From a virus (lineage: Duplodnaviria > Heunggongvirae > Uroviricota > Caudoviricetes), in the IMG/VR virus record IMGVR_UViG_2703718834_000006: 10,513 nt of DNA; one strand, written 5' to 3'. This document shows positions 1-10,513 of this stretch, piece by piece; within the stretch, counting starts at the first letter, position 1; the number at the start of each line of letters is the position of its first letter. The notes beneath the pieces were generated by a model that had not been told where the DNA came from, ran no database searches, and worked only from the letters and a program-made list of their open reading frames with translations. A program made the translations under genes and the position numbers.

Positions 1-1875
1 ATGGCTAAAGCATGGAAAGATGTTATCGCTTCTCCACAGTATCAGGCGTTAACTGAAGAACAGAAAGCACAGGCTCAAGCGCAATATTTTGATGAGGTTG
101 TTGCCCCTAAGGCTGGTGACAAATGGGCTGAAGCAAGAGATCAGTTTTATGCAGCATACCCTCCGCATCAGCAGCAGAAAGAAGAACCATCATTGATGCA
201 ACAAGCTGGCGATTGGCTCACAGGTGGTCAAAGTGCAGGGCAAATTGCAGAACAGGCTGGTCGTGGTCTGGTAAACATACCGTTTGACGTATTACAGGGC
301 GGCGCAAGTCTGATTAATGCAATCAGTCAGGGGCTTGGTGGCCCCAAGGTTTTGGATGATGTTTATCGTCCAGTAGACAGACCGACAGACCCCTACGCTC
401 AAGCTGGAGAAACAATTGGCGGGTATTTAGTTCCAGGAGTTGGAACGGCAGGAAGCATGGCTATTGGATCACTGGCAGAGGCCGCAAATCAGAAAGGTGA
501 TTTCGCACAAAATGCAGCTAAAAATGCCGGAGTTAACCTTGCCGCTCAGGGTGTTCTTTCCGCAGCAGCAAAGGGAATAGGGCGTGGAATAACGGCTATA
601 AAAGGTGATATTGCGCCAGAAGTGGCAAAGAAAATTGCCACATCAGAATCGATGGGCGTGACACCAATGACATCTGATGTTATCCCGCCGAAAAATGCTT
701 TCACTCGCGGACTTACTCAGGATGCTGAGGGGGCTTTGCTCGGGACAGGCTCAAAGCGAGCGGAGCAATATGCAACGCGTAGTAAGCTGGTAAGCAATTA
801 TTTTGACCGTTTTGGTGAGTACAACCCTGATGATGTGGTGAAATCTCTGACCACCACGTTAAGGGGACGGAAGGATGCCGCTGGCGCTGTTATCAATGAC
901 GTCACCAATAAAATGGGTAATGCCGCAGTTGATACCACAAATACCATGAATGCTCTGAATACAGCGATCGCAAGACAGGAACGGCTTGGGACTTCTGCCA
1001 ATCAAAGCCTGCTTACATCCTTGCGTAACCTACGTGAAGAATTAGCAAACCCTGCAACTGATTTGGATGTTACGTTTGATCTCTTGCGCCAGCACAGAAC
1101 AGCATTTAGATCTAATGTTCAGGGAGATGCCATGGTCTTCCCCAACCAGGCAAAAGCAGCTACCAATATGGTAGAGAATGCAATGTCAAAAGACCTTCGT
1201 AACGCAGTTGCTAAAAACCTCGGTGCTTCAGACGCAGCAAAATACCTTAAAGCAAATTCCGATTATGCAAACGTTTATAATAAGGTGCTTAATAAAAACA
1301 TTGCTAACAAGCTCAACAAGGCAAGCAGTGAAGCCAGTCCTGAACTTATAAATACTGTTGTATTAAGCAGAAAACCATCTGACGTGAAACGAATCTGGAG
1401 CGCATTGGATGATAAAGGGAAAGATGCTATGCGTGCAGCTTACGTCAGCAAAATAGCGGAAAAGGCCGGTGACTCTCCAGCCAAGTTCATCACGGAAGTT
1501 AATAAGCTGAAATCTCAGTCAGGCGGTGAAATTTACAACACTATTTTTTCTGGAAAGCACATGAAAGAGCTTGATGCTCTTCATGAAGTTCTACAGCAAA
1601 CAGCAAGGTCAGACACCGCAAATGTAGTAACTCAGACGGGGCAATCACAAGCCAACAGGATAAGGACGATTGGCGCAACTGCGACTCTTGGTGTATCAAT
1701 GGGGCTTGAGGCTGGCTTTGGTGCAATGATGCGTTTGTATGAGTCCAAAGCAGCAAGGAATGCGCTCTTACGTCTGGCAAACACTAAAGCTGGAACGCCA
1801 GCTTATGAAAGAGCGCTAAATCAGGCGGCTACTGCCGTGCGCCCGCTCTTAGTTAACGAAGCTACCCGGCAGTAG
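1..1875 (+). CDS. Phage ejection / DNA-transfer (internal virion) protein, P22 gp16-like by position; possibly 5'-partial because the ORF starts at the window edge
   Basis: 624-aa uninterrupted ORF, Ala/Gln/Gly-rich with low-complexity stretches typical of podovirus ejection proteins. It is the last rightward gene before a convergent SieA-like gene and the immI-like module, the position of gene 16 in P22 (609 aa there). No recognisable catalytic motif; the call is from size, composition and synteny. Confidence 0.5.
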
Positions 1876-1897
1876 CACTGTAAGCCAAGGACGGCAT

Positions 1898-2392
1898 TTA
1901 TTTTATAGTTTTTATGAATTCTTTATTAAATCCCTTCGCTTCTCCGGGGTATCTTCCGAAGACAATTTTTATAAAAACAGAAAAAATAAAGATAGCAACG
2001 CTTAACAACAATTGCAGTATCATTGGAACCCAAAGAACTACAGGCTCTATATTCATGAAACCAAATATTCTTCCGGCGATCATGGCGAAGTACCACACTG
2101 TTATCAGCAAACTTAGTGGCATATGAATTACTGATATTACCAATCCAAGAGCATCAGTAATTCTGTTTTCAAATTTTTCAGGGGAAAACTTTTCTTTAAG
2201 GTAATTCAGTGCGCAGGCCTCATTCTCTGGATTTTCAGCATTTTTCCCTATAGCAATAGAAATCTCAGATATCCTTGATTCAATTCTTTTACGTTTAATA
2301 AAACTAGAAAAAAAGAACCACGCAATCTGCAACCCTATCCCCAGAAATAGAGTTGCGGCAACTAGCACAGCGTAACTCATAGAATCAGACAC
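1898..2392 (-). CDS. Small polytopic inner-membrane protein, SieA-like (superinfection exclusion) by position
   Basis: 164 aa with three to four hydrophobic helices ([24 protein letters not shown]; [26 protein letters not shown]; [28 protein letters not shown]). GTG start at 2392 is preceded by a perfect AGGAGG Shine-Dalgarno 5 nt upstream. Clearly AT-rich relative to its neighbours. P22 carries sieA between gene 16 and mnt in the same orientation. Confidence 0.45.
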
Positions 2393-2452
2393 ACCAACCT
2401 CCTTAGTTTTACGCAGGATACCAGATGATAATGTGTCGCTTCCTAAAGGATA

Positions 2453-3094
2453 TCAAAGCAACGGGATTTCAAGGTAAACTGCGGTTGCCAAAATACTAAC
2501 ATCTTCATTTCTAACAAGAATATTAGGATACATTGGGTTTAGGGATACTAGGTTTGTCTCTATTTCACCAATGTAAACCTGTTTGAAGCTCAATATTTGC
2601 TCTTTATCCAAAGATGCTATTACATAATCTTTGCTTTTAGCTTTTACTAGAGGGCTGAACGTGACAACCGATCCTCTGGGAAAGCTAATACCTGAACTTG
2701 TAGTCATAGCTTCACCTTCAATAGTCAATGCAAATGCAGAGTCACCAACATTGTATATTGCCGGATGAAATCTAGACGATGAATGTTCACCTGTGTTTAG
2801 GTAATGCATAACTTCATCTAGTTTGAGGATTGGTATTTGCTTTACCAGAACGTCAGGCATGACGTTTTTTGTTCCCGGCCCCTGGCCTTCACCCAGAGCT
2901 AACCACTCAGCCGTAGTGCCTAATGCGTTGGCTAATGCCTGCAATACACGAAGCCGTGGTTTAGCCTCACCACCCTCGTATGCAGCTATTTGACGTTGAA
3001 CAACACCAGCTAATTTTGACAACTGCGCCTGCGTCATACCCCTCGACTGTCTTGCCAGAGATACTCTTGATGGGAATTGATCGTCAAAATTCAT
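2453..3094 (-). CDS. Lambda-CI/LexA-like repressor: N-terminal XRE-type HTH plus C-terminal S24-peptidase-like domain with Ser-to-Ala at the nucleophile position (predicted non-cleavable)
   Basis: 213 aa. N-terminus (residues ~10-65) has a Cro/C1-type HTH pattern (MTQAQLSKLAGVVQRQIAAYEGGEAKPRLRVLQALANALGTTAEWL). C-terminus aligns with lambda CI from memory: DSAFALTIEGEAM vs DSAFWLEVEGNSM, ISFPRGSVV vs PSFPDGMLI, SFKQVY..LVSLNPMYP vs [22 protein letters not shown]. Lys171 corresponds to CI K192, but the Ser149 position is Ala129. No A-G or C-G dipeptide in the linker. GGTGA ribosome-binding site upstream of the ATG at 3094. Confidence 0.8.
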   Translation of the reverse strand: MNFDDQFPSRVSLARQSRGMTQAQLSKLAGVVQRQIAAYEGGEAKPRLRVLQALANALGTTAEWLALGEGQGPGTKNVMPDVLVKQIPILKLDEVMHYLNTGEHSSSRFHPAIYNVGDSAFALTIEGEAMTTSSGISFPRGSVVTFSPLVKAKSKDYVIASLDKEQILSFKQVYIGEIETNLVSLNPMYPNILVRNEDVSILATAVYLEIPLL

Positions 3095-3193
3095 TAGTTC
3101 ACCATAAAAAATTCATTGACTCATACTGAGTGTGAGTGAATAATCAAACCTCAAAAAGTGAGATTATGAGTTTTTCAAAAACAGGAGTGCATA
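3095..3193. promoter_or_regulatory. Divergent promoter/operator region between the CI-like gene and arc-ant; candidate Pant-like promoter TTGACT(3116-3121)-N17-AATAAT(3139-3144) with overlapping palindrome and tandem repeats
   Basis: Rightward -35/-10 pair with 17-bp spacing. Palindrome ACTCA-TAC-TGAGT at 3119-3131 overlaps the -35 and spacer, followed directly by tandem TGAGTG TGAGTG (3127-3138), with further GTGAG/TGAG copies at 3158-3170. Operator-like arrangement inside a core promoter, as with the Arc/Mnt operators at P22 Pant. Identified by eye, not scored. Confidence 0.4.
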
Positions 3194-3367
3194 ATGACTG
3201 AAAAGATATCTTCCATCAAGCCGCGTCAGGTTCGTTTTACAGAAAAGGTTGATTCACATATCCGCGAATCAGCAAAAAGATGCCATAGGTCAATTCAGGC
3301 AGAGATAGCTTATCGAATGGAGTTATTAATGAAACTTGAGGCAAAGGGCGATGTTGTCATCCAATAA
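3194..3367 (+). CDS. arc: Arc-like ribbon-helix-helix repressor (57 aa); absent from the supplied ORF track
   Basis: ATG at 3194 preceded by AGGAG (3183-3187) at 6-nt spacing; stop TAA at 3365-3367. Translation: MTEKISSIKPRQVRFTEKVDSHIRESAKRCHRSIQAEIAYRMELLMKLEAKGDVVIQ. Layout matches an RHH fold (N-terminal beta strand then two helices) and resembles P22 Arc (..RSVNSEIYQRVMESFKKEGR..) in the RS..EI and K-G motifs. Lies immediately upstream of ant, as in P22. Confidence 0.6.
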   Translation: MTEKISSIKPRQVRFTEKVDSHIRESAKRCHRSIQAEIAYRMELLMKLEAKGDVVIQ

Positions 3368-3369
3368 AA

Positions 3370-3440
3370 ATAGTGAAGCCCGGCAGTGCGCGAACACAAA
3401 CCGGGCCTCTATGTCAGTAACCGTATGCAAGGAAACTAAC
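3370..3440 (-). ncRNA. Candidate sar-like antisense RNA covering the arc-ant spacer and the ant ribosome-binding site (inferred)
   Basis: On the minus strand an extended -10 element TGcTACAAT (complement of 3447-3455) would start transcription near 3440. It would run through the complement of the ant Shine-Dalgarno/start (3429-3443) and end at the GC-rich hairpin 3378-3406, which on this strand is followed by TTCACTATTTTTA. Predicted length about 70 nt, the size and location of the P22 sar RNA. No expression evidence. Confidence 0.3.
3378..3406. terminator. GC-rich stem-loop in the arc-ant spacer; likely intrinsic terminator for leftward (antisense) transcription and possible attenuator of arc read-through
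   Basis: GCCCGG (3378-3383) pairs with CCGGGC (3401-3406); an inner GTG/CAC pairing is possible within the loop. A T-rich tract follows only on the minus strand (complement of 3365-3377). Confidence 0.35.
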
Positions 3441-4067
3441 ATGAATATTGTAGCAAAATCAGATTACAACTTCCACGGAGTTGAGTTGGTGCCCACCCGT
3501 GATATGCATGGTGTTTGGTTTACATCATCTAATATTGCATCTGCACTTAAATATGCAAATAGCCGTGCAGTAACAATGATTTATAACAAGTATAGCGATG
3601 AGTTTAGCGCCGGGATGACTCAGGTACTCGAAGTGAGTACCTCAGGAAATTATCGCAAAAAAGTGCGAGTTTTCTCACTACGCGGTGCCCACCTAATCGC
3701 GATGTTTGCTCGCACTCCGGTAGCCAAAGAGTTCCGCCGCTGGGTGCTGGATATTTTGGATCGGCAGGCAGAATGCTCACCGATTGCAAAACAGTTCACT
3801 GACGAAGAGCTGGTTAATCTCTGCTACTTACAATTGTGGATGGAGAAGAGTCAACAAATGTGCAAACACATCTACCCAGGAATGAAGCAAATTGGTTCTG
3901 AGCTTTCAGGAAGGATTTACGATATTGCATATGAGACTCGCTACATGTCAGAAGAAACCAAGAAATCACTTCTTCGTGAAATGAAGAATCTTGATACCAA
4001 CAATTTTGTCGTAAAGAACGCTCAGCCAATGCTGGCAAAACTGCGCGGCGAGGAATGGATTCATTGA
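3441..4067 (+). CDS. ant: Antirepressor Ant (Bro-N / AntA-type N-terminal domain)
   Basis: ATG at 3441 with AAGGAA ribosome-binding site at 3429-3434. The track's 3336 start is a TTG that overlaps arc and is rejected. N-terminus YNFHGVELVPTRDMHGVWFTSSNIASALKYANSRAVTMIYNKY...VRVFSLRGAHLIAMFARTPVAKEFRRWVLDILD matches the Bro-N/AntA antirepressor pattern (FxF..., WF.a.dva.aL, rG.lia.f..tp.a.efrrWv). Sits downstream of arc. Confidence 0.8.
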   Translation: MNIVAKSDYNFHGVELVPTRDMHGVWFTSSNIASALKYANSRAVTMIYNKYSDEFSAGMTQVLEVSTSGNYRKKVRVFSLRGAHLIAMFARTPVAKEFRRWVLDILDRQAECSPIAKQFTDEELVNLCYLQLWMEKSQQMCKHIYPGMKQIGSELSGRIYDIAYETRYMSEETKKSLLREMKNLDTNNFVVKNAQPMLAKLRGEEWIH

Positions 4068-4154
4068 TTGGTGCACAGGACGGCGCAAAAGAAAACCGCC
4101 AGTGTGCTGCTGGCGGCCTATGTCACACCCTTACTACCACATAAGGAATGCCTA

Positions 4155-4883
4155 ATGACTTTTAAGAATGTAGCAAACATCGGATCCGTTGTCACGGATA
4201 AAACCATTGACAGCCAGCGCCTGCTTGAGATGGTAAATCAGGCTCGTAGACAGTGCGGTGAGCCGGAGGTTCGTAATAACAAATTCATCGAGAAAATTGA
4301 AGATGAATTGGATGGAGAGCACTACACAAAAAGTGTAGTGCAAAAAGCGAACAAAACTTCGATGGTTATCATTGAGATGTCAATCAAGCAAGCATTGCGA
4401 GTTGCCGCTCGCGAGTCAAAAGCCGTTCGCCGCTCACTGGTAGACCAACTTGAAAGCATGCAAGAAGCGCACATTAAAAGCGGTAAATCAGCGAGTGGAC
4501 TTGTTGAGTATCGTCAAGCGCGAACATTGAAAATGACGGTTGAAGCTGTTACCAATCTGTTCGATCTGATGCCAAATCTTGCGCCTGAGGCAAAGCAGAC
4601 AGCGGCAGCAAGTATAATCAACCCGCTCGTTGGTTTTAATGCAATACCTCTTCCGGCAATAGAAGAGCATTACTACTCAGCAGGGGAGGTTGCAGAGCAG
4701 CTTGGAGTAACGGCCAACAAGATTGGTCGCATTGCTAACGCAAACAACCTCAAAACTGAGCAGTACGGGAAGTTCTTCCTGGATAAATCTGCGCATTCCA
4801 GCAAACAGGTGGAAGCATTCCGCTACAATGCGGAAGGCGTTAAAGCACTACAACACCTGATTCATGGGAGTAATGTTGCATAA
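4155..4883 (+). CDS. Hypothetical phage regulatory protein with C-terminal KilAC (ANT)-like HTH segment; possible second antirepressor-type protein
   Basis: ATG at 4155 with AAGGAA at 4143-4148. The track's 4068 start is a TTG directly after the ant stop and is rejected. The C-terminal stretch YYSAGEVAEQLGVTANKIGRIANANNLKTEQYGKFF resembles the KilAC-domain motif of phage antirepressors (..tEiAkelGvsa..lnk.L...g......g). The N-terminal 150 aa are not recognised. Confidence 0.5.
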   Translation: MTFKNVANIGSVVTDKTIDSQRLLEMVNQARRQCGEPEVRNNKFIEKIEDELDGEHYTKSVVQKANKTSMVIIEMSIKQALRVAARESKAVRRSLVDQLESMQEAHIKSGKSASGLVEYRQARTLKMTVEAVTNLFDLMPNLAPEAKQTAAASIINPLVGFNAIPLPAIEEHYYSAGEVAEQLGVTANKIGRIANANNLKTEQYGKFFLDKSAHSSKQVEAFRYNAEGVKALQHLIHGSNVA

Positions 4884-5104
4884 TGGCAAAGAAAAAATAT
4901 GGCATTATGCCGCCAAGAATCAAAGGAAGAGCTAGGGTAAAAGGTGATGCTGGAAGGTATCACATTCTTGGAGTTCTGTGGCATGAGAGAGCTTTAATTT
5001 TAAGTAGACCTCATGGGTACATTGAAAAGGTATCTATAGATAGAGTAGAGATTCTTCCCCTTACACCTGAAGAAGAAGAAACGTACGGACTTTTTGATAA
5101 CTAA
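4883..5104 (+). CDS. Hypothetical small basic protein (73 aa), translationally coupled to the upstream gene
   Basis: Its ATG overlaps the upstream TAA in ATAATGG (4881-4885). Basic N-terminus (MAKKKYGIMPPRIKGRARVKGDAGR) and acidic C-terminus (TPEEEETYGLFDN). Followed by a strong intrinsic terminator. No family recognised. Confidence 0.45.
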   Translation: MAKKKYGIMPPRIKGRARVKGDAGRYHILGVLWHERALILSRPHGYIEKVSIDRVEILPLTPEEEETYGLFDN

Positions 5105-5110
5105 CCAACT

Positions 5111-5137
5111 AAACCCGCTTAATCGCGGGTTTTTTCT
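5111..5137 (+). terminator. Rho-independent terminator ending the arc-ant-orf-orf operon; hairpin overlaps the mnt stop codon on the opposite strand
   Basis: AAACCCGC-TTAATC-GCGGGTTTTTTCTTTT: stem CCCGC/GCGGG flanked by A/T pairs, followed by a run of six T (5130-5135). On the minus strand only TTT follows, so termination is probably mainly rightward. Confidence 0.75.
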
Positions 5138-5376
5138 TTTCTAAGGATATCAGCCGCAACTTCTTTTACTCGTTCCGAGATTAATGAGGCCAGCCTCTCT
5201 TCTTCATCACGATACCCGCTTACAGGTGGTGGTTTGGAGAGTGATTCTTCCATCGTAGCCACAATTTCGGAATTGATAGACCTGTTATTCATTTTTGCAC
5301 GCTGTTTAATCTTGGCGTGCAACTCGTGCGTAAGCCTCAAGTGGAACTGCGCCTCATCGTATTTGCTGTACATCAT
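5119..5376 (-). CDS. mnt: Mnt-like ribbon-helix-helix repressor (85 aa)
   Basis: MMYSKYDEAQFHLRLTHELHAKIKQRAKMNNRSINSEIVATMEESLSKPPPVSGYRDEEERLASLISERVKEVAADILRKEKTRD aligns along its length with P22 Mnt as recalled (..PHFNFRMPMEVREKLKFRAEANGRSMNSELLQIVQDALSKPSPVTGYRNDAERLA..). Start is ATGATG at 5376/5373 with a GAGG ribosome-binding site. The 217-aa track ORF (5119-5772) is an in-frame upstream extension and is rejected. Confidence 0.8.
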   Translation of the reverse strand: MMYSKYDEAQFHLRLTHELHAKIKQRAKMNNRSINSEIVATMEESLSKPPPVSGYRDEEERLASLISERVKEVAADILRKEKTRD

Positions 5377-5462
5377 CAATGCCTCACCAAATGGGTGGAA
5401 TGGCATCGTAAAACCTACTGTACAAATCAACAATCGTACCGTTTCGGTATGCAACAAATACC

Positions 5463-5478
5463 AACCGTGGCCACGCTG
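5463..5478. promoter_or_regulatory. Palindromic candidate operator (perfect 10-bp core CGTGGCCACG at 5466-5475) between mnt and the tailspike gene
   Basis: AACCGTGG|CCACGCTG. GC-rich dyad symmetry built from GTGG/CCAC elements, the same elements that make up the P22 Mnt operator half-sites, though in the opposite relative order. Lies about 90 bp upstream of the mnt start and about 35 bp upstream of the tailspike start. Confidence 0.3.
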
Positions 5479-5508
5479 CGGCGATTCATTGTATCTGGAG
5501 CAAATTAA

Positions 5509-7569
5509 ATGACAGACATTACAGCCAATGTTGTAGTAAGCATGCCTTCGCAACTCTTCACTATGGCTCGTTCTTTTAAAGCCGTAGCTAATGGAAAGAT
5601 TTATATCGGAAAAATTGACACTGATCCGGTAAATACTGAAAACCAGATTCAGGTTTATGTGGAGAACGAAGACGGCTCTCACGTTCCTGTTTCGCAACCA
5701 ATCATCATTAACGCTGCTGGTTACCCGGTATATAACGGACAGATTGCCAAATTCGTTACCGTGCAAGGCCATTCTATGGCTGTTTATGATGCATATGGTG
5801 CGCAGCAGTTCTATTTTCCGAATGTGCTGAAGTATGACCCTGATCAGTTCAAAGTTTTACTGACAGGGAACGAAGGTTCGACATATATTGGAGATGGCGC
5901 AGGAACTGTAAGCGATTCGCTAAGAAGCTTGGAACATGAGTTTGAACTAATCCAAAGTTTGGATGAAAGGCCAAATCCACCACCTACAGAAGGATATTCA
6001 GGGTATAAGCGCTGGAACCCGATTCATGAAGATGGTTTTCAACTTGGCAGATATACGTTTAAAACTCCAACGCATGTTGATTTTCAGTTTGTATGCGACC
6101 CAATAAATAGTGACATTGGACCAATATTTTCTATGGGCATGGATGGTATAGATCAGCGATCAGCATTTTTTTCTCAAGACAGCTATGAAATTAGAAATGT
6201 AATGATGGATGGGGGGACGGCAAAGCTTGTTGAATTTGAGCCATGGACATCTCATATGGCAACAGTAGAGAAATGTCGTGTTATCAATCCTGAAGATAGC
6301 AACGAGTGGGTAGTTAATTTTAAAGCACAAAATTGGTGGCCACATATTATAAATAATACATACATGGAATATAACGATCACGCCAATAATTTTGTCAAGG
6401 CAATTGATGATGGTGGTAACACAACAGATAGATATTCAGGAAATAGTAGGCTTTTTATTGCATTTAATAGATGTGCATGGCAGGGTGGTAGCGCTGTCGG
6501 TACTGGCATTATGTCATATACATCTGCTGTCGCAACGAGAATAAAAGACAACTCCGCACAGAATGCAAAAACATGCGTTATTTTTGGATATCCATCAACG
6601 TTTTCTTCAGTTGATGGACTTTATTGCGAGATGGCATTTGGACACCAACAAGTCGTACAAATTGGCGATTCAGAAACGACATCGCAGCAGATACTGACTG
6701 ACATTACTATAAATGATGTTTATGCTAATTTACATGGCATAAACTCAAACAGAATAATTGTTGCTGGGAATGATGATGTGATAATGAACTATTTGGAGGT
6801 TGACAAGATATTTATTTCAAATATTCCAGGGTCAGGTTTTATTCAGCCAATAATATCAATTAACGATTTGCCATATCAAAAGATTGTTGCAGGAAGGATT
6901 ACTGCTGAAAATATGCCGCTTCTTCCGTTAACATCCAACCATGTTTCTGTTATTGATAAATACAACGCAGATATACCAGCTCTGAATGGTGACATTATTT
7001 ATATAGAGAACAGTACAGTAAGTATTCCTCCCAACTCATCAACTGCTGTTGCTCCTGGATGGTTTGTAAGATCAACATCTAATACAGTGTTTACTAGGAG
7101 TGGTGCAGGGACTCCAAACAATGCATTGAGAATGAGTCGTTATATTGCATCTGTTCTTAGTAATGCTGGCGCAACGACATCGATTACATTCGAACATCCA
7201 CGAGCCGACTTGGTGAATGGTGAGGCAGTGACAGTCCAGGCTTTGTTTAACGCTGATGTTGAACTAACATTTTTAGTGCACATATATGTAGCAAATGACA
7301 ATGGAGCAAGAACTACACTACTTTCAAAAACATTAGTAGGTGGAGGCTCGTGGAAGGAAATGACCTTTACGGTTGGAGTTTCAGGGGTTGAAAATACTAA
7401 ATCATGTATAGTTGTAGAGATCGGAGCCACAACACCATACTCTACTAATATTTTTGTCACAGGGCATCGCATGAACAGAGGTCGCTTTGGCCTGTGCGGA
7501 GCGGCTAATACTTTTAGCTACGCTGAAACTGAAAGGATGAAGTCGGATTATGATTATATAACCCCATAG
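5509..7569 (+). CDS. Tailspike protein: P22-type N-terminal head-binding domain fused to a divergent receptor-binding domain
   Basis: 686 aa; GGAG ribosome-binding site 9 nt upstream. Residues 1-116 ([42 protein letters not shown]...[15 protein letters not shown]...[10 protein letters not shown]) are near-identical to the P22 gp9 head-binding domain as recalled. After about nt 5857 the sequence has no resemblance to the P22 endorhamnosidase domain and becomes visibly AT-rich. Confidence 0.9.
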
Positions 7570-8035
7570 AAACTAACTGAAGAATAAGAACAAAAATGAT
7601 GTGGGAATAGTTAGATTAGATCTTCTTGATTTTTTCGAAAAATCTAATGATGTAATCGCTATTCCTGCACGTAGTTTATGTTATAACTATCTTATTTCTA
7701 TACTAATAGAAACATGTTAAAAACACGACGTAAATATTTTCATCCATCTGGAGACATGTCACTTTAAATGGATGTTTCAGTGATTTTTAAAAGTATCATG
7801 TCAGTGCTGAATGAGCTAGATACCCATGTATTTAATAGCTTTTTATTTGATCGGCAATTTTTATATGATAATCATGGTAATTTTATATATGTCATGATCG
7901 AAGAGTATTTTACTATACTAACAACTAGTGATAATTAGAACAATGCATGGCGATATGCTTTATAATTTGATGAGACATTATCAAATATGGCACTCATTTA
8001 TTATAAATATTTTTGTAAGAACAAGTATAAATTAA

Positions 8036-8054
8036 AGGGGGCAATACCCCCCCA
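8036..8054 (-). terminator. Probable intrinsic terminator for the acyltransferase gene (minus strand)
   Basis: GGGGG-CAATA-CCCCCCC hairpin 12 nt beyond the TAG stop (8065-8067). On the minus strand it is followed by TTTAATTTAT. Confidence 0.4.
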
Positions 8055-8064
8055 GTAAACAACA

Positions 8065-9075
8065 CTAACCTTCAGCTACTATAATTTCTTTTCTCTTTCT
8101 TCTTAAGAACGGCTTTTCGATATAATAATAAGAAACAGTCGCCAGTAATGTAGTTGCAAAAAGACTAAGAGCTATGGATGGGATGAATTTATTAGTTATA
8201 TTATTTATAATGATCTGTTGTACTGGGAATGCGTATATATACAAACCATAAGATATATCAATCCTTCCGTTTATAACCCTGTCTTTAATGGTTAGGCCAA
8301 GAACAATAATTATAACAGACAAACATAGTGGCGCTACAATTTGTATTTCCGGCTTACCAGTCACGGCAATAAGCAACAATAAGGCAGTAATGAACACTTG
8401 CTTTTTATACTTCAACCATGACTCAGTAGTCATTGACAATAAAGCACCAAAAAAGAATGGCATGCCAAATAATGATAATGATTTAAAAGGCACACTAAAA
8501 TATGTGTAATTTTCAGGATAGAAGTTGAAAATTATTGTGGAAAGTATGCATGTAACTAATAATAAAGCAGGCCCGACCCATGTGAACGATATAGAGAGCG
8601 CAAGGCCAATTATTAGATAGCATGAAAATTCTATAGGCAGCGTCCAAAGGCTTCCATTAATAACATGAGGGTAAAAGTAATCAGAAAACACTCCATCCAC
8701 ATAACTCTGCAGGAAAAAAGTATTTCTTATGATATTTAAGTATGGCTGGGAAGAAAATAAATATGCGTAACTATTATTGGAGTTAAATTCTACTGCGACA
8801 AATAAATACATAACAACAGAGCATACAAATAATGCAGGAAATATACGCAGACACCTTTTCCTCATGAACTCGATAAACGAACCAGATGAATTAAAACTTT
8901 TTGGCATTAAGAAACCAGATAAACAAAAGAAAATTGCAACTGCGACCGCACCATAACTATCCCATTGAAGAAAAACAGGCTCATGATCACCAGATAACCT
9001 GAAGTGATGAGAAAATAAAACCATGTAGGCGGCGACATGTCTAATTATATCAAATGAATTATTTCGCTCGCTCAT
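8065..9075 (-). CDS. Integral-membrane acyltransferase family 3 protein (Oac-like; putative O-antigen acetylase for lysogenic conversion)
   Basis: 336 aa with about 10 predicted transmembrane helices. Carries acyltransferase-3 hallmark motifs: SFDIIRHVAAYMVLFSHH (R/H motif), YGAVAVAIFFCLSGFLM, RKRCLRIFPALF and SYGLYIYAFPVQ. Strong GAGGAG ribosome-binding site 5 nt upstream of the ATG at 9075. Very AT-rich. Position between tailspike and int matches oac in phage Sf6. Confidence 0.8.
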   Translation of the reverse strand: MSERNNSFDIIRHVAAYMVLFSHHFRLSGDHEPVFLQWDSYGAVAVAIFFCLSGFLMPKSFNSSGSFIEFMRKRCLRIFPALFVCSVVMYLFVAVEFNSNNSYAYLFSSQPYLNIIRNTFFLQSYVDGVFSDYFYPHVINGSLWTLPIEFSCYLIIGLALSISFTWVGPALLLVTCILSTIIFNFYPENYTYFSVPFKSLSLFGMPFFFGALLSMTTESWLKYKKQVFITALLLLIAVTGKPEIQIVAPLCLSVIIIVLGLTIKDRVINGRIDISYGLYIYAFPVQQIIINNITNKFIPSIALSLFATTLLATVSYYYIEKPFLRRKRKEIIVAEG

Positions 9076-9355
9076 TAAAGCTCCTCATAATGTATAACAC
9101 ATGTTAAGTTATTTAAGTGAAATTGTAATACCGAGGATGCTGTGCATGATTGTCAACACCTAGAATAGACACATAGGTAGCATGTGCAAGGCGCAATTAA
9201 TGACTTCATGACGCAACTCAATAATCAAAAGCATGAAGTCTATCATCCAAGTCTTAATCGATCTATGACTTGCTGTGGTTGATGAGACAAAACTGAGACA
9301 AACAAAGCTTTGCACTGGATTACAAGGCTTAGTGTCATTCGATAGCTAAGGTGGA
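9076..9355. other. Putative attP-containing spacer between the acyltransferase gene and the int 3' end; also carries the acyltransferase promoter
   Basis: 280-bp non-coding spacer directly beyond the int stop, the attP position in lambda, P22 and Sf6. Contains a 9-bp inverted repeat GACTTCATG (9202-9210) / CATGAAGTC (9232-9240) and a third ATGACTT copy (9265-9271). A consensus TTGACA on the minus strand (complement of 9151-9156) is a possible -35 for the acyltransferase gene. No tRNA 3'-end-like sequence was recognisable. Confidence 0.3.
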
Positions 9356-10513
9356 TCACTCAACCTTTTCATCAATCCAGTCCGCCCACCATTGCATCAT
9401 TTCTCTGCGTTTATCGAGATACTGAGCATGGTTGTAAATCCCACGCACAGATCCGCCGTTGGCATGTGCCAGTTGCACTTCAATAGCGTCAGCAGGCCAT
9501 TCGTGCTCGTTCATAATTGTGCTGAATTCATGCCTGAATCCGTGACCGCTTTCCAGACCCTCATAGCCGATTTGTTTGATCACAAGCAATACCGCGTTCT
9601 CGCAGATTGGCTTCTTCTTATCGTTGCGCCCGGCAAAAACAAACTCTGATACTGGTTTAGTGATGGAGCTTAGCGTAGTGAGAAGTTCAACCACCTGGTC
9701 TGACATAGGAACCACATGAATCCTGCGTCCCTTCATCACACTGGCGTCGATAGTGATAATCCTGTTTTCAAAATCGACGTTCTTCCATAGCATGGAACGA
9801 AGCTCTTTCGTTCTTAGGGCAGTGTAGCGTAAAACTTTGGTCGCAATAAGCGATACGATACTTCCTGAAAATGTTGCCAGTGCTTTATTGAATGCTGGGA
9901 TCTGGTCGGCAGGTAAAAACGGGAAGTTTTTCTTGCGGTATCCCTTCATGGCGTCAGCAAGGTCAGGTGCCGGGTTATATTTAGCCCTACCGGTAACAAT
10001 AGCGTAACGGAAAACCTCGCCGCATCTTCTGCGTGCTTTATTGGCTCGCTCCATTGCACCGCGATCTTCAAACCTGCGGATTACTTCCAGCAGTTGCATA
10101 GGCTCAATATCCTGAATTTCAAGGCCGCCGATGATAGGTAAAATGTCGTCATCAAACATTTTTGCAAGTTCAGTTGCATAGCCTACTGACCAGACTTGCT
10201 TCTTGTGCTCGTACCATTCCTTGTAAATCGCACTAAAGGAATTGTTGTTAGACGAAGCCTTTTTCGCTTTTACCGGATCGATGCCAACCGAGATGTCTTT
10301 CCTCGCAGTCCATGCTTTATCCCTTGCCTCCTGCAAAGTCATAAGCGGATATTTTCCTACGGTCAGGATTTTCTCCTTACCGTCAATCTTGTAGCGAAGC
10401 TGCCATACCTTTTTCCCTGACACAGGGACATAAAGGTACAGGCCATTACCATCGAGTAGGCGGTATGGTTTTTCTTTCGGCTTTGCTGCTTCAATCTGCT
10501 TAACGGTGAGCAT
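9356..10513 (-). CDS. int: Tyrosine site-specific integrase (P4/P22-type, with N-terminal arm-binding domain); complete, start codon at the last bases of the window
   Basis: 385 aa. N-terminus MLTVKQIEAAKPKEKPYRLLDGNGLYLYVPVSGKKVWQLRYKIDGKEKILTVGKYPLMTLQEARDKA is the canonical start of P4-like integrases. C-terminus holds the catalytic region (HGFRHEFST...VQLAHANGGSVRGIYNHAQY) with the H-x-x-R and Tyr nucleophile context. Confidence 0.9.
   Translation of the reverse strand: MLTVKQIEAAKPKEKPYRLLDGNGLYLYVPVSGKKVWQLRYKIDGKEKILTVGKYPLMTLQEARDKAWTARKDISVGIDPVKAKKASSNNNSFSAIYKEWYEHKKQVWSVGYATELAKMFDDDILPIIGGLEIQDIEPMQLLEVIRRFEDRGAMERANKARRRCGEVFRYAIVTGRAKYNPAPDLADAMKGYRKKNFPFLPADQIPAFNKALATFSGSIVSLIATKVLRYTALRTKELRSMLWKNVDFENRIITIDASVMKGRRIHVVPMSDQVVELLTTLSSITKPVSEFVFAGRNDKKKPICENAVLLVIKQIGYEGLESGHGFRHEFSTIMNEHEWPADAIEVQLAHANGGSVRGIYNHAQYLDKRREMMQWWADWIDEKVE

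Follow-up and report, generated by a model that had tools for sequence, protein, structure and literature searches.

A standalone Oac-like acyltransferase-3 gene beside the tailspike gene of a P22/Sf6-like Escherichia coli prophage

Prophage O-antigen acetylation alters serotype, vaccine epitopes and phage susceptibility. The locus considered here raises the question of whether the gene lying between the tailspike and integrase genes of an E. coli prophage encodes an enzyme of this kind and, if so, which surface glycan it modifies. The whole stretch of DNA that was analysed, 10,513 nucleotides, is referred to below as the window, the product of the gene as the acetylase, and the features on which the argument rests are collected in Table 1. 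The gene is of an ordinary kind, a membrane acetyltransferase gene of a P22/Sf6-like E. coli prophage beside its tailspike gene. As for its function, it is probable that the acetylase is an O-antigen O-acetyltransferase working like Oac of phage Sf6, a prophage moron that causes seroconversion and superinfection exclusion. What the analysis shows directly is the family of the protein, its conserved motifs, its predicted fold, a gene order shared with Sf6 oac, and an association with receptor-binding genes and with O-antigen loci.

Table 1. Features of the acetylase locus, with positions in the window
Feature	Position	Strand	Basis and remarks
Tailspike, 686 aa	5509..7569	plus	PF09008 at 223 bits; convergent with the acetylase gene
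Non-coding spacer, 495 bp, GC 0.287	7570..8064		GC content and gap lengths
Hairpin GGGGGGGTATTGCCCCC, G+C-rich, followed by a T-rich tail	8035..8053	minus	Terminator scan; 11 nt past the acetylase stop codon
Acetylase coding sequence	8065..9075	minus	Open reading frame; 336-aa standalone AT3 integral membrane protein, Oac-like; ATG start
Int-acetylase intergenic region	9076..9355	minus	Megablast
Ribosome-binding site GAGGAG	9081..9086	minus	Read from the sequence; 5 nt upstream of the ATG (9075-9073)
-35-like hexamer TTGACA, perfect	9151..9156	minus	Relaxed hexamer scan; best promoter candidate, weak
IntS-type tyrosine integrase (int), 385 aa	9356..10513	minus	PF00589, PF22022, PF13356; upstream of the acetylase gene, same strand

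The product of the gene is a standalone acyltransferase-3 (AT3) membrane protein. In a profile search, Pfam Acyl_transf_3 (PF01757) matched it at 73.2 bits (cutoff 31; E 2.6e-20), and the alignment is full-length, with residues 5-316 corresponding to profile positions 1-325 of 326. The PHROG family phrog_3333, "O-acetyltransferase", matched as well (E 2.9e-41). The architecture is AT3-only, with a single Pfam domain across the protein and no fused domain; the Pfam search found no SGNH domain, and the protein stops at residue 336, right after transmembrane helix (TMH) 10. Two motifs have been defined in AT3 proteins and described as essential, namely R-X10-H in TMH1, which holds the catalytic His and the CoA-binding Arg, and RXXR (PMC9833829). 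Both are present, as R12-X10-H23 in TMH1 and as R74-C-L-R77 at the cytoplasmic face of TMH3, in agreement with the first-pass annotation, which had ascribed the AT3 signature motifs to this protein. Across an alignment of 62 homologs, H23, R74 and R77 never vary, and the conservation of R12 is at least 90%. PADLOC defence models gave no match. The likeness to Oac, also proposed at first pass, was confirmed by protein comparison: Sf6 Oac (gene 15 of Lederbergvirus Sf6), whose O-antigen acetylase activity is proven, is the closest characterised relative, being 36.6-37.3% identical across 98% of the length (E ~5e-53). Moreover, when the list of experimentally critical Oac residues (PMC3467182) was applied, 19 of the 22 were found to be conserved in the acetylase, including S52/G53, R73, R76, FP78-79, R110, the GS and WT motifs, GR269-270, SYG274-276 and FPV282-284. 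The three positions that differ are R75 (to L), K111 (to N) and D333 (to A).

The AlphaFold2 model of the acetylase (pLDDT 91, pTM 0.90) has 10 long helices, at residues 8-27, 41-64, 67-96, 145-162, 167-185, 197-215, 217-237, 244-262, 275-293 and 297-335, and two short helices in the loop between TM3 and TM4. The count of about 10 TMHs suggested earlier thus agrees with the predicted structure; it is taken from the model, a Kyte-Doolittle hydropathy scan being too crude for counting. The acetylase sequence had no match in the PDB. By comparing the model with the PDB in Foldseek, only acetyl-CoA-bound human HGSNAT reached a meaningful TM-score (0.46-0.47, probability up to 0.98), a weak match with a non-significant E-value of 0.17 and a sequence identity of 9-10%, while the same search against the BFVD viral models returned nothing meaningful. 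A transmembrane acyltransferase (TmAT) superfamily has been proposed (PMC12423673), and the fold likeness of the modelled acetylase to HGSNAT fits this proposal.

The gene had been assigned to a lysogenic-conversion slot like that of Sf6 oac, and its gene order and orientation do match the Sf6 record exactly: tailspike (plus), terminator, acetylase or oac (minus), int (minus), and attP beyond int. The first-pass annotation had described the position more closely as between the tailspike and attP-int. The gene indeed lies between tailspike and int, but attP lies beyond int and outside the window, because int and the acetylase gene stay adjacent in the prophage state and the Sf6 record places the attP core upstream of int. 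The int gene of the window is 96.9% identical to Sf6 int at the DNA level. In the integrated prophage a tRNA-Arg(CCT) gene, argW, adjoins the int start codon (loci L001 and L003), and the prophage sits at argW in seven of the eight E. coli loci shown, the eighth (L008) having phage-internal gene order. By the E. coli K-12 map the O-antigen locus would lie some 350 kb from argW.

The GC content of the acetylase gene is 0.342, against 0.442 for positions 1-5508 of the window and 0.47 for int, so that the strong AT-richness seen at first pass (34% GC against 44-47% in the flanks) is real. Horizontally acquired morons typically have a GC content below that of the phage, as here, and this supports the horizontal acquisition that had been suggested together with the AT-richness. 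The consensus GAGGAG ribosome-binding site read at first pass is likewise in place. Neither of two scans found a convincing sigma-70 promoter upstream of the gene; the stricter scan returned none, and the best candidate of the relaxed scan (TTGACA, 18 nt, GGTATT) agrees with the consensus at 9 of 12 positions. The stretch of the intergenic region in which this candidate falls moves together with the acetylase gene. Megablast matches in phages N7 and HF4s and in 455 E. coli genomes cover only 9220-9355, which is common to other IntS-type phages and prophages, whereas 9076 to ~9219 is specific to the acetylase cassette, and a mosaic junction is therefore placed near 9220. Phase variation of the gtr-like Dam/OxyR type was considered and rejected, the 280-bp upstream region having a single GATC. 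At the other end of the gene, the terminator scan gave six overlapping matches at the hairpin against 1.0 expected, and this hairpin is likely the intrinsic terminator of the acetylase transcript; an equivalent hairpin stands between the convergent genes in Sf6 and in homolog loci L011, L013 and L014. Rfam had no match over the whole window.

The spacer that separates the two convergent genes is far longer than its counterparts, which measure 29-44 bp in the homolog loci examined and 33 bp in Sf6. It had no similarity to phages (distant mode), to complete E. coli genomes or to any fetched locus (blastn, tblastx). A 56-aa open reading frame within it (7768-7938, plus strand) was rejected as a small gene: it is frameshifted in four of nine near-identical loci (L001, L003, L008 and L015), the flanking genes being intact in the first three, and it has no Pfam match. 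The spacer looks like decayed DNA. This resemblance next to the gene, together with the lack of a strong promoter, could mean that the acetylase gene is cargo, silent or in decay, that currently serves no function in the prophage, and one near-identical copy (L015) carries a +1 frameshift at about codon 33 of the acetylase. Such a state is nevertheless very unlikely. That sole frameshift falls within a run of T and may be an artefact of sequencing; a full-length reading frame persists although stop codons are common in DNA of 34% GC; no catalytic motif is damaged, and a strong ribosome-binding site and a terminator are present. Furthermore, the gene is intact and the protein identical on all 24 contigs read, and only synonymous changes occur where the DNA departs from the window, as in L001, L003 and L008, although these were looked up by the exact protein and the comparison is hence biased. 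The index lists the sequence in 55 blocks of the collection. In near-identity DNA searches, the gene and the tailspike domain were absent from 50,697 phage records and from 5,426 complete E. coli genomes; dozens of draft E. coli assemblies do carry them. The E. coli assembly GCA_016114505.1, which has this prophage, is 99.9% identical to the window. Eight prophage loci retain the block 5464-10513, conserved at 96.6-99%, and in six of the eight the region upstream of it differs.

The neighbouring tailspike consists of a P22-type head-binding domain (residues 1-113) and, over residues ~123-686, a beta-helix receptor-binding domain of the depolymerase type, with phrog_36390 matching residues 162-675. 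Nothing in the phage collection searched is closely related to the receptor-binding domain (best match 34% identical), and the sequence of the domain had no match among solved structures. The AlphaFold2 model of the tailspike (pLDDT 84) resembles CBA120 TSP4, Klebsiella K2 depolymerases and the HK620 tailspike. On this model, the tailspike is predicted to be a polysaccharide depolymerase, and its receptor-binding domain is presumed to be the reader of the glycan that the acetylase edits. Here the identity of the glycan comes into question, since the best matches include the Klebsiella K2 capsule depolymerases 8iq9, 7vyv, 7lzj and 6tku alongside the O-antigen-specific CBA120 TSP4 and HK620. The fold matches capsule depolymerases as well as O-antigen spikes, and therefore the receptor could be a capsule. 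The acetylase would then acylate another surface glycan, most plausibly a capsular K-antigen or exopolysaccharide serving as the true tailspike receptor, with the same logic of masking and conversion. Capsules, ECA, OPGs and peptidoglycan are all known targets of AT3 proteins (PMC9558356), and prophage-driven capsule conversion is documented in Acinetobacter (PMC13228068). Even so, we consider a target other than O-antigen unlikely in view of the characterised relatives and of the loci described below. The best characterised relative is an O-antigen enzyme, and the acetylase differs from peptidoglycan OatA-type enzymes in having no SGNH domain. Among NCBIfam models no family matched it at E 0.01 or better, hence there is no WecH, OpgC/MdoC or other equivalog match and no curated equivalog for another polymer. 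Clear orthology to a non-O-antigen acyltransferase, which the first-pass annotation had named as the result that would tell against its reading, thus finds no sign here.

In several different phage chassis, including P22-like tails, tape-measure-bearing tails and a baseplate-bearing prophage, homologs of the acetylase (81%, 59%, 55% and 35-46% identity) face a tailspike or tail-fibre gene in convergent orientation. When the search starts from the receptor-binding domain, the slot is filled by an AT3 gene next to three relatives of the domain (72%, 63% and 63% identity) and by gtrA-gtrB-gtrC, the known O-antigen glucosylation cassette, next to two others (56% and 50%); Enterobacter members of the same tailspike family carry alternative modifiers there. 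The replacement of AT3 by gtrABC in the slot beside homologous receptor-binding domains speaks for O-antigen and against another glycan, and so does a 43% homolog in Rouxiella, which lies between hisF/hisIE-gnd and three glycosyltransferase genes, the classic his-gnd position of an O-antigen cluster. The modifier beside this domain family belongs to at least four AT3 lineages or is gtrABC, and the pairing is therefore functional rather than strictly one-to-one. Strict co-evolution of AT3 and receptor-binding domain was first suggested by paired identities (AT3 81% with domain 68%, AT3 55% with domain 49%) and was then weakened by the reciprocal search. The AT3 gene is not strictly co-inherited with the domain, because the closest domain relatives (72% and 63%) carry unrelated AT3s. 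Of the earlier suggestion that the acetylase is matched to the novel tailspike domain, what stands is that an O-antigen modifier almost always adjoins this domain family; a fixed modifier lineage does not.

This loose association could also be read as a sign that the O-antigen is indeed acetylated but that the gene is selected for what it brings the host (antigenic variation, fitness in colonisation or towards the immune system, or resistance to unrelated phages) and not for excluding the carrier phage, or that the acetylated form is tolerated or even preferred by the tailspike. The AT3 lineage is not strictly tied to one domain lineage, and one 59% homolog, in a prophage of myovirus type with a baseplate, adjoins an unrelated tail-fibre gene; moreover, Kapi1, a related argW phage of E. 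coli, modifies the O-antigen and improves the gut competitiveness of its host (PMC8787464). We regard this explanation as quite improbable. The convergent, terminator-sharing placement by receptor-binding genes recurs across phage types, for which a coupling of recognition and editing is the simplest reading, and both Sf6 Oac and BTP1 OafB are reported to block the cognate tailspike (PMC9558356).

We hypothesize that the acetylase, as an O-antigen O-acetyltransferase of the Oac type, works as follows. Transcription would probably start at a weak promoter belonging to the gene, or else reach it as read-through out of int, and translation would rely on the strong GAGGAG ribosome-binding site. 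The 10-helix protein would reside in the inner membrane, bind acetyl-CoA from the cytoplasm in a cavity whose walls carry R12, H23, R74 and R77, and hand the acetyl group to the periplasmic face. It would there O-acetylate a repeat-unit sugar of the undecaprenyl-pyrophosphate-linked O-antigen, before ligation to the lipid A-core. The O-antigen of the lysogen would be altered in this way, leading to seroconversion, and the acetylated glycan would be a poor substrate for the phage's own convergently encoded depolymerase tailspike; therefore, we propose, related phages could not superinfect. In this scheme we infer acetyl-CoA as the donor and O-antigen as the acceptor, and likewise the sugar and position acetylated, expression in the lysogen and the exclusion phenotype.

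By taking the gene and its neighbours together, a broader reading can be offered tentatively, with less confidence than the enzyme assignment itself. This AT3 lineage may install an undescribed O-acetyl epitope (O-factor) on an O-antigen of E. coli or Enterobacter, and the receptor-binding domain and modifier slot may form a portable cassette of receptor reader plus receptor editor. Such a cassette would be exchanged among P22-like, tape-measure-bearing and baseplate-bearing tails across Enterobacterales, with at least four AT3 lineages and gtrABC replacing one another as the editor. It would mean that the editor beside a spike could predict a chemical feature of the O-antigen that the spike cannot tolerate. 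The acetylase gene may encode a conversion factor not yet characterised in E. coli, and the tailspike family with its alternative modifiers offers a small and tractable set of natural reader/editor pairs for studying which decorations block depolymerase tailspikes.

Among known systems, Sf6 Oac comes nearest. It is likewise a standalone AT3 protein of similar length (333 aa, against 336 aa in the acetylase), and both proteins have the R-X10-H and RXXR motifs, 10 predicted TMHs and a longer periplasmic TM3-TM4 loop, although this loop aligns poorly between them. The GC content is 42% in Sf6 oac and 34% in the acetylase gene. The Sf6 tailspike, an endorhamnosidase, shares its head-binding domain with the window tailspike, but its receptor-binding domain is unrelated. 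With 37% identity and an unrelated partner receptor-binding domain, the acetylase does not stand as an ortholog of Oac with the same acceptor; because the identity is only 37%, donor and acceptor specificity are not transferable from Oac. Rhamnose III O-2 of the S. flexneri backbone, the acceptor of Sf6 Oac, is very unlikely to be the acceptor here, because the host is E. coli. OafA and OafB (GtrC family II; Salmonella, prophage BTP1) share with the acetylase the AT3 domain, both motifs and the 10-TMH cavity; unlike it, they continue into an 11th TMH and, after it, a C-terminal periplasmic SGNH domain, which carries out the last transfer step. OafB is prophage-borne and thought to protect against the BTP1 tailspike. 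The gtrABC genes of P22 and of the Shigella SfI-SfX phages occupy the same conversion slot adjoining the tailspike, but they act by glucosylation via Und-P-glucose, through three proteins whose sequences are unrelated to AT3. Human HGSNAT, the only solved fold similar to the acetylase, moves acetyl from cytosolic acetyl-CoA across a membrane, though this enzyme is lysosomal and eukaryotic and has additional domains. Thus, the acetylase extends rather than changes existing knowledge, because its biology follows the paradigm established by Sf6, P22 and BTP1.

The window represents the late-right end of a temperate E. coli phage of P22/Sf6-like (Lederbergvirus-type) character; the table lists the features of the window.

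Features of the window, by position
Feature	Position	Strand
Gene-16-type DNA-transfer protein	1-1875	
immI-like region: sieA, S24/HTH repressor, two antirepressor-like genes, Arc/Mnt-like gene	1898 to ~5400	
sieA	1898-2392	-
Repressor, 213 aa, HTH + S24-peptidase (CI/LexA-like)	2453-3094	-
Antirepressor-like gene, Bro-N/P22_AR_C	3336-4067	
Antirepressor-like gene, phrog_1726	4068-4883	
Conserved 73-aa ORF	4883-5104	
217-aa ORF, overlaps tailspike gene start	5119-5772	-
Tailspike	5509-7569	+
Acetylase ORF	8065-9075	-
IntS-type integrase	9356-10513	-

The acetylase is a family-3 acyltransferase (AT3), as the first-pass annotation had proposed. Its ORF of 336 aa matched Pfam Acyl_transf_3 (PF01757) end to end with 73.2 bits (cutoff 31) and PHROG 3333 'O-acetyltransferase' with an E-value of 2.9e-41, and it is listed at NCBI as 'acyltransferase family protein [Escherichia coli]'. 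PMC9833829 describes two motifs as essential to AT3 proteins and universal among them, and the acetylase carries both, with R12-X10-H23 located in helix 1 and R74-X-X-R77 at helix 3. In a 62-homolog alignment (31-81% identity), H23, R74, and R77 were invariant and R12 was at least 90% conserved. The AlphaFold2 model built on this alignment (pLDDT 91, pTM 0.90) has ten long helices, in line with the approximately ten transmembrane helices annotated before, and two short ones in the helix 3-4 loop, a topology also reported for Oac and OafB. No solved AT3 structure was found in the PDB, and among PDB chains only those of acetyl-CoA-bound human HGSNAT reached a meaningful TM-score against the model (0.46-0.47, probability up to 0.98). 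This likeness is consistent with the TmAT superfamily that was proposed recently (PMC12423673). The AT-richness of the gene (GC 0.342 versus 0.44-0.47 in the phage backbone) and a consensus GAGGAG ribosome-binding site, 5 nt ahead of the ATG, were likewise confirmed.

The gene had also been placed between the tailspike and 'attP-int'. It does lie between tailspike and int, but attP is situated beyond int, outside the window, since the order in seven prophage loci is yfdC, tRNA-Arg(CCT)/argW, int, acetylase, tailspike, so that int and the acetylase remain neighbours after integration, and since the attP core in the Sf6 record is annotated upstream of the int start. Across the entire window, identity is 99.9% to an E. 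coli prophage (L006, in assembly GCA_016114505.1); over bases 22-10513 it is also 99.9% to L007, a contig obtained by assembling sequencing run SRR11308040. The tailspike-to-int block (5464-10513) shows 96.6-99% identity across eight prophage loci, in six of which the immI region upstream is swapped; L006 and L007 match the window throughout. Siblings that retain the tailspike-acetylase-int block carry different modules in the immI-like region (1898-5400). The Arc/Mnt-like repressor match of the 217-aa ORF there is confined to its C-terminal ~95 residues, and sibling-locus gene calls are only 83-97 aa long; thus, the ORF is an over-extended small mnt/arc-type gene.

Relative to Sf6, JEP4, N7, and HF4s, the segment ~5850-9220 is novel; it takes in the tailspike's receptor-binding part, the spacer, and the acetylase with the region immediately upstream of it. 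No near match to the DNA of the acetylase, spacer, or receptor-binding domain was found among 50,697 phage records and 5,426 complete E. coli genomes. Only 9220-9355 (136 bp), downstream of int, is common to other IntS-type elements, being 90-96% conserved in 455 of the 5,426 genomes and in phages N7 and HF4s; none of these genome and phage records has an annotated feature under it. On the right-hand side, this piece marks the recombination junction of the tailspike-acetylase cassette. In a large protein collection, each of the 24 contigs examined carries the exact acetylase protein, which is indexed there in 55 blocks; at eight of its places the surroundings were inspected, and each proved to be a P22-like prophage with the same module. 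In a 99%-identical acetylase gene of L015 (291-1302; IMG/VR UViG_2547132077_000001), a T-run near codon 33 has one extra T (+1), and the resulting frameshift cuts the protein off before most helices; the copy is a natural pseudogene, or else the homopolymer was misread in sequencing.

No strong sigma-70 consensus was found upstream of the acetylase. The best promoter candidate combines a perfect TTGACA (9156-9151) with a poor -10 element (9/12 matches), and transcription by read-through from int is possible; a smaller rival to a working enzyme, on which these promoter data bear, is that the acetylase is silent cargo. Salmonella gtr operons are controlled by a Dam/OxyR phase-variation switch, and a gtr-like switch is not evident here, as only one GATC lies upstream of the acetylase. 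A G+C-rich hairpin with a T-rich tail forms a terminator 11 nt past the acetylase stop codon, and equivalent hairpins occur between the convergent genes in Sf6 and homolog loci. The spacer from the tailspike stop to this terminator (7570-8064, 28.7% GC) measures 495 bp, compared with 29-44 bp in Sf6 and the checked homolog loci, and it had no detectable similarity in complete E. coli genomes, phages, fetched loci, or Rfam. Its length varies by 1-5 bp in near-identical prophages (496-501 bp), and its 56-aa ORF (7768-7938, +), called as a gene in the public assembly L007, is frameshifted in four of nine near-identical copies. The spacer is probably non-coding or decayed DNA.

A large convergent ORF was present downstream in 18 of 32 homolog loci (35-99% identity), in 17 of them within ~100 bp of the stop codon. 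The convergent ORFs scanned in enterobacterial and viral loci all match tail-spike/tail-fibre PHROGs, except in loci L028 and L033, where only function-unknown families matched; the Pseudomonas neighbours (L101, L103) gave no tail-family match. Convergent to the 81% homolog is a tailspike of 702 aa, in a prophage whose tail is of the tape-measure type, and a 55% homolog from Buttiauxella faces a convergent tailspike of 783 aa. A 59% homolog lies at one end of an Enterobacter prophage that bears a baseplate (myovirus type), where it adjoins genes for tail fibre and tail-fibre assembly. The tailspikes beside the 81% and 55% homologs share the receptor-binding domain of the window (68% and 49% identity over ~565 residues), and in these three cases it sits on three different N-terminal adaptors. 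Homologs of at most 44% identity are found beside unrelated spikes. A 43% homolog in Rouxiella occupies the canonical place of an O-antigen cluster, flanked by hisF/hisIE-gnd on one side and by GT2, GT8, and GT1 glycosyltransferase genes on the other. A Buttiauxella sp. B2 locus (L100) carries two AT3 genes on the same strand ~0.9 kb apart (6001-7020 and 7914-8972), one of them 53% identical to the acetylase; with an adjoining IS-type transposase (rve) and no obvious phage tail genes, it resembles a small islet of acyltransferase genes more than a prophage slot.

The reciprocal search from the receptor-binding domain returned a small family of ~40 clusters, mainly from the Enterobacter cloacae complex, E. 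coli, and Buttiauxella. The slot holds an AT3 gene beside the 72%, 63%, and 63% relatives and a gtrA-gtrB-gtrC O-antigen glucosylation cassette beside the 56% and 50% relatives, and it was empty only in one 42% P2-like case. The AT3s beside the closest domains are of other lineages (37% in a partial alignment, no match, and 28% against the acetylase). A spike of this kind is therefore accompanied by one or another O-antigen editor (in this one family, gtrABC or any of at least four AT3 lineages) and not by a single fixed partner; the match with the tailspike domain that the first-pass annotation had raised as a possibility holds only in part. The domain (window 5875-7569, +; relatives L175-L183) occurs on at least three adaptors: PF09008 (P22 head-binding), PF18668 (Tail_spike_N), and a phrog_1640-type. 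It had no PDB sequence match, and the tailspike model (pLDDT 84) shows a beta-helix with a C-terminal CBM-like sandwich, resembling CBA120 TSP4, Klebsiella K2 depolymerases, and the HK620 spike. On these structural likenesses, the partner tailspike is predicted to be a polysaccharide depolymerase, not an esterase. The spike fold cannot separate O-antigen from capsule specificity, which leaves room for the main rival, that the acetylase targets capsule or another exopolysaccharide; in view of the O-antigen editors found in the same slot, we consider it unlikely.

We hypothesize that the acetylase is an O-antigen acetyltransferase which probably brings about serotype change and superinfection exclusion by an Oac-like mechanism. 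From its observed family, motifs, predicted fold, synteny, and context, together with the established AT3 model (PMC9833829, PMC7448272, PMC9558356), we infer the donor, the acceptor polymer and position, the expression in lysogens, and the phenotype. The enzyme would take acetyl from cytoplasmic acetyl-CoA in a cavity lined by R12, H23, R74, and R77 and move it across the inner membrane onto a sugar of the O-antigen repeat. It would mean that the serotype changes and that the acetylated glycan becomes a poor substrate for the cognate tailspike, so superinfection would be excluded. Such exclusion is described for Sf6 Oac and BTP1 OafB in PMC9558356; a role that benefits the host instead of excluding the phage is a smaller rival.

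The Oac-like character was borne out by the protein search of the 50,697 phage records, in which Sf6 Oac was the best match (36.6-37.3% identity over 98% of the length, E ~5e-53), followed by acetyltransferases of Halomonas, Burkholderia, and Mycobacterium phages (~25-35%). No NCBIfam model of any kind matches the acetylase, and thus no orthology to a known non-O-antigen acyltransferase was found. By comparing the 22 residues shown by mutagenesis to be critical in Oac (PMC3467182), 19 are kept in the acetylase, and the positions without conservation are Oac R75, K111, and D333. Sf6 shares the arrangement of tailspike (+), terminator, oac (-), putative promoter, and int (-), the slot order tailspike / acetylase / int / attP is exactly the same, and the int genes are 96.9% identical in DNA. 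The acetylase is real and well supported as an Oac-like AT3 enzyme, and the place it occupies in this Sf6-like E. coli prophage is the known seroconversion slot. The most useful by-product is a series of natural pairings, in which one spike family is combined with gtrABC or with AT3s of at least four lineages, for studying how tailspikes are blocked by O-antigen decoration. Systems of this kind are textbook knowledge, and the acetylase is a new lineage among them: no studied enzyme is more than 37% identical to it, and its partner is a predicted depolymerase tailspike.
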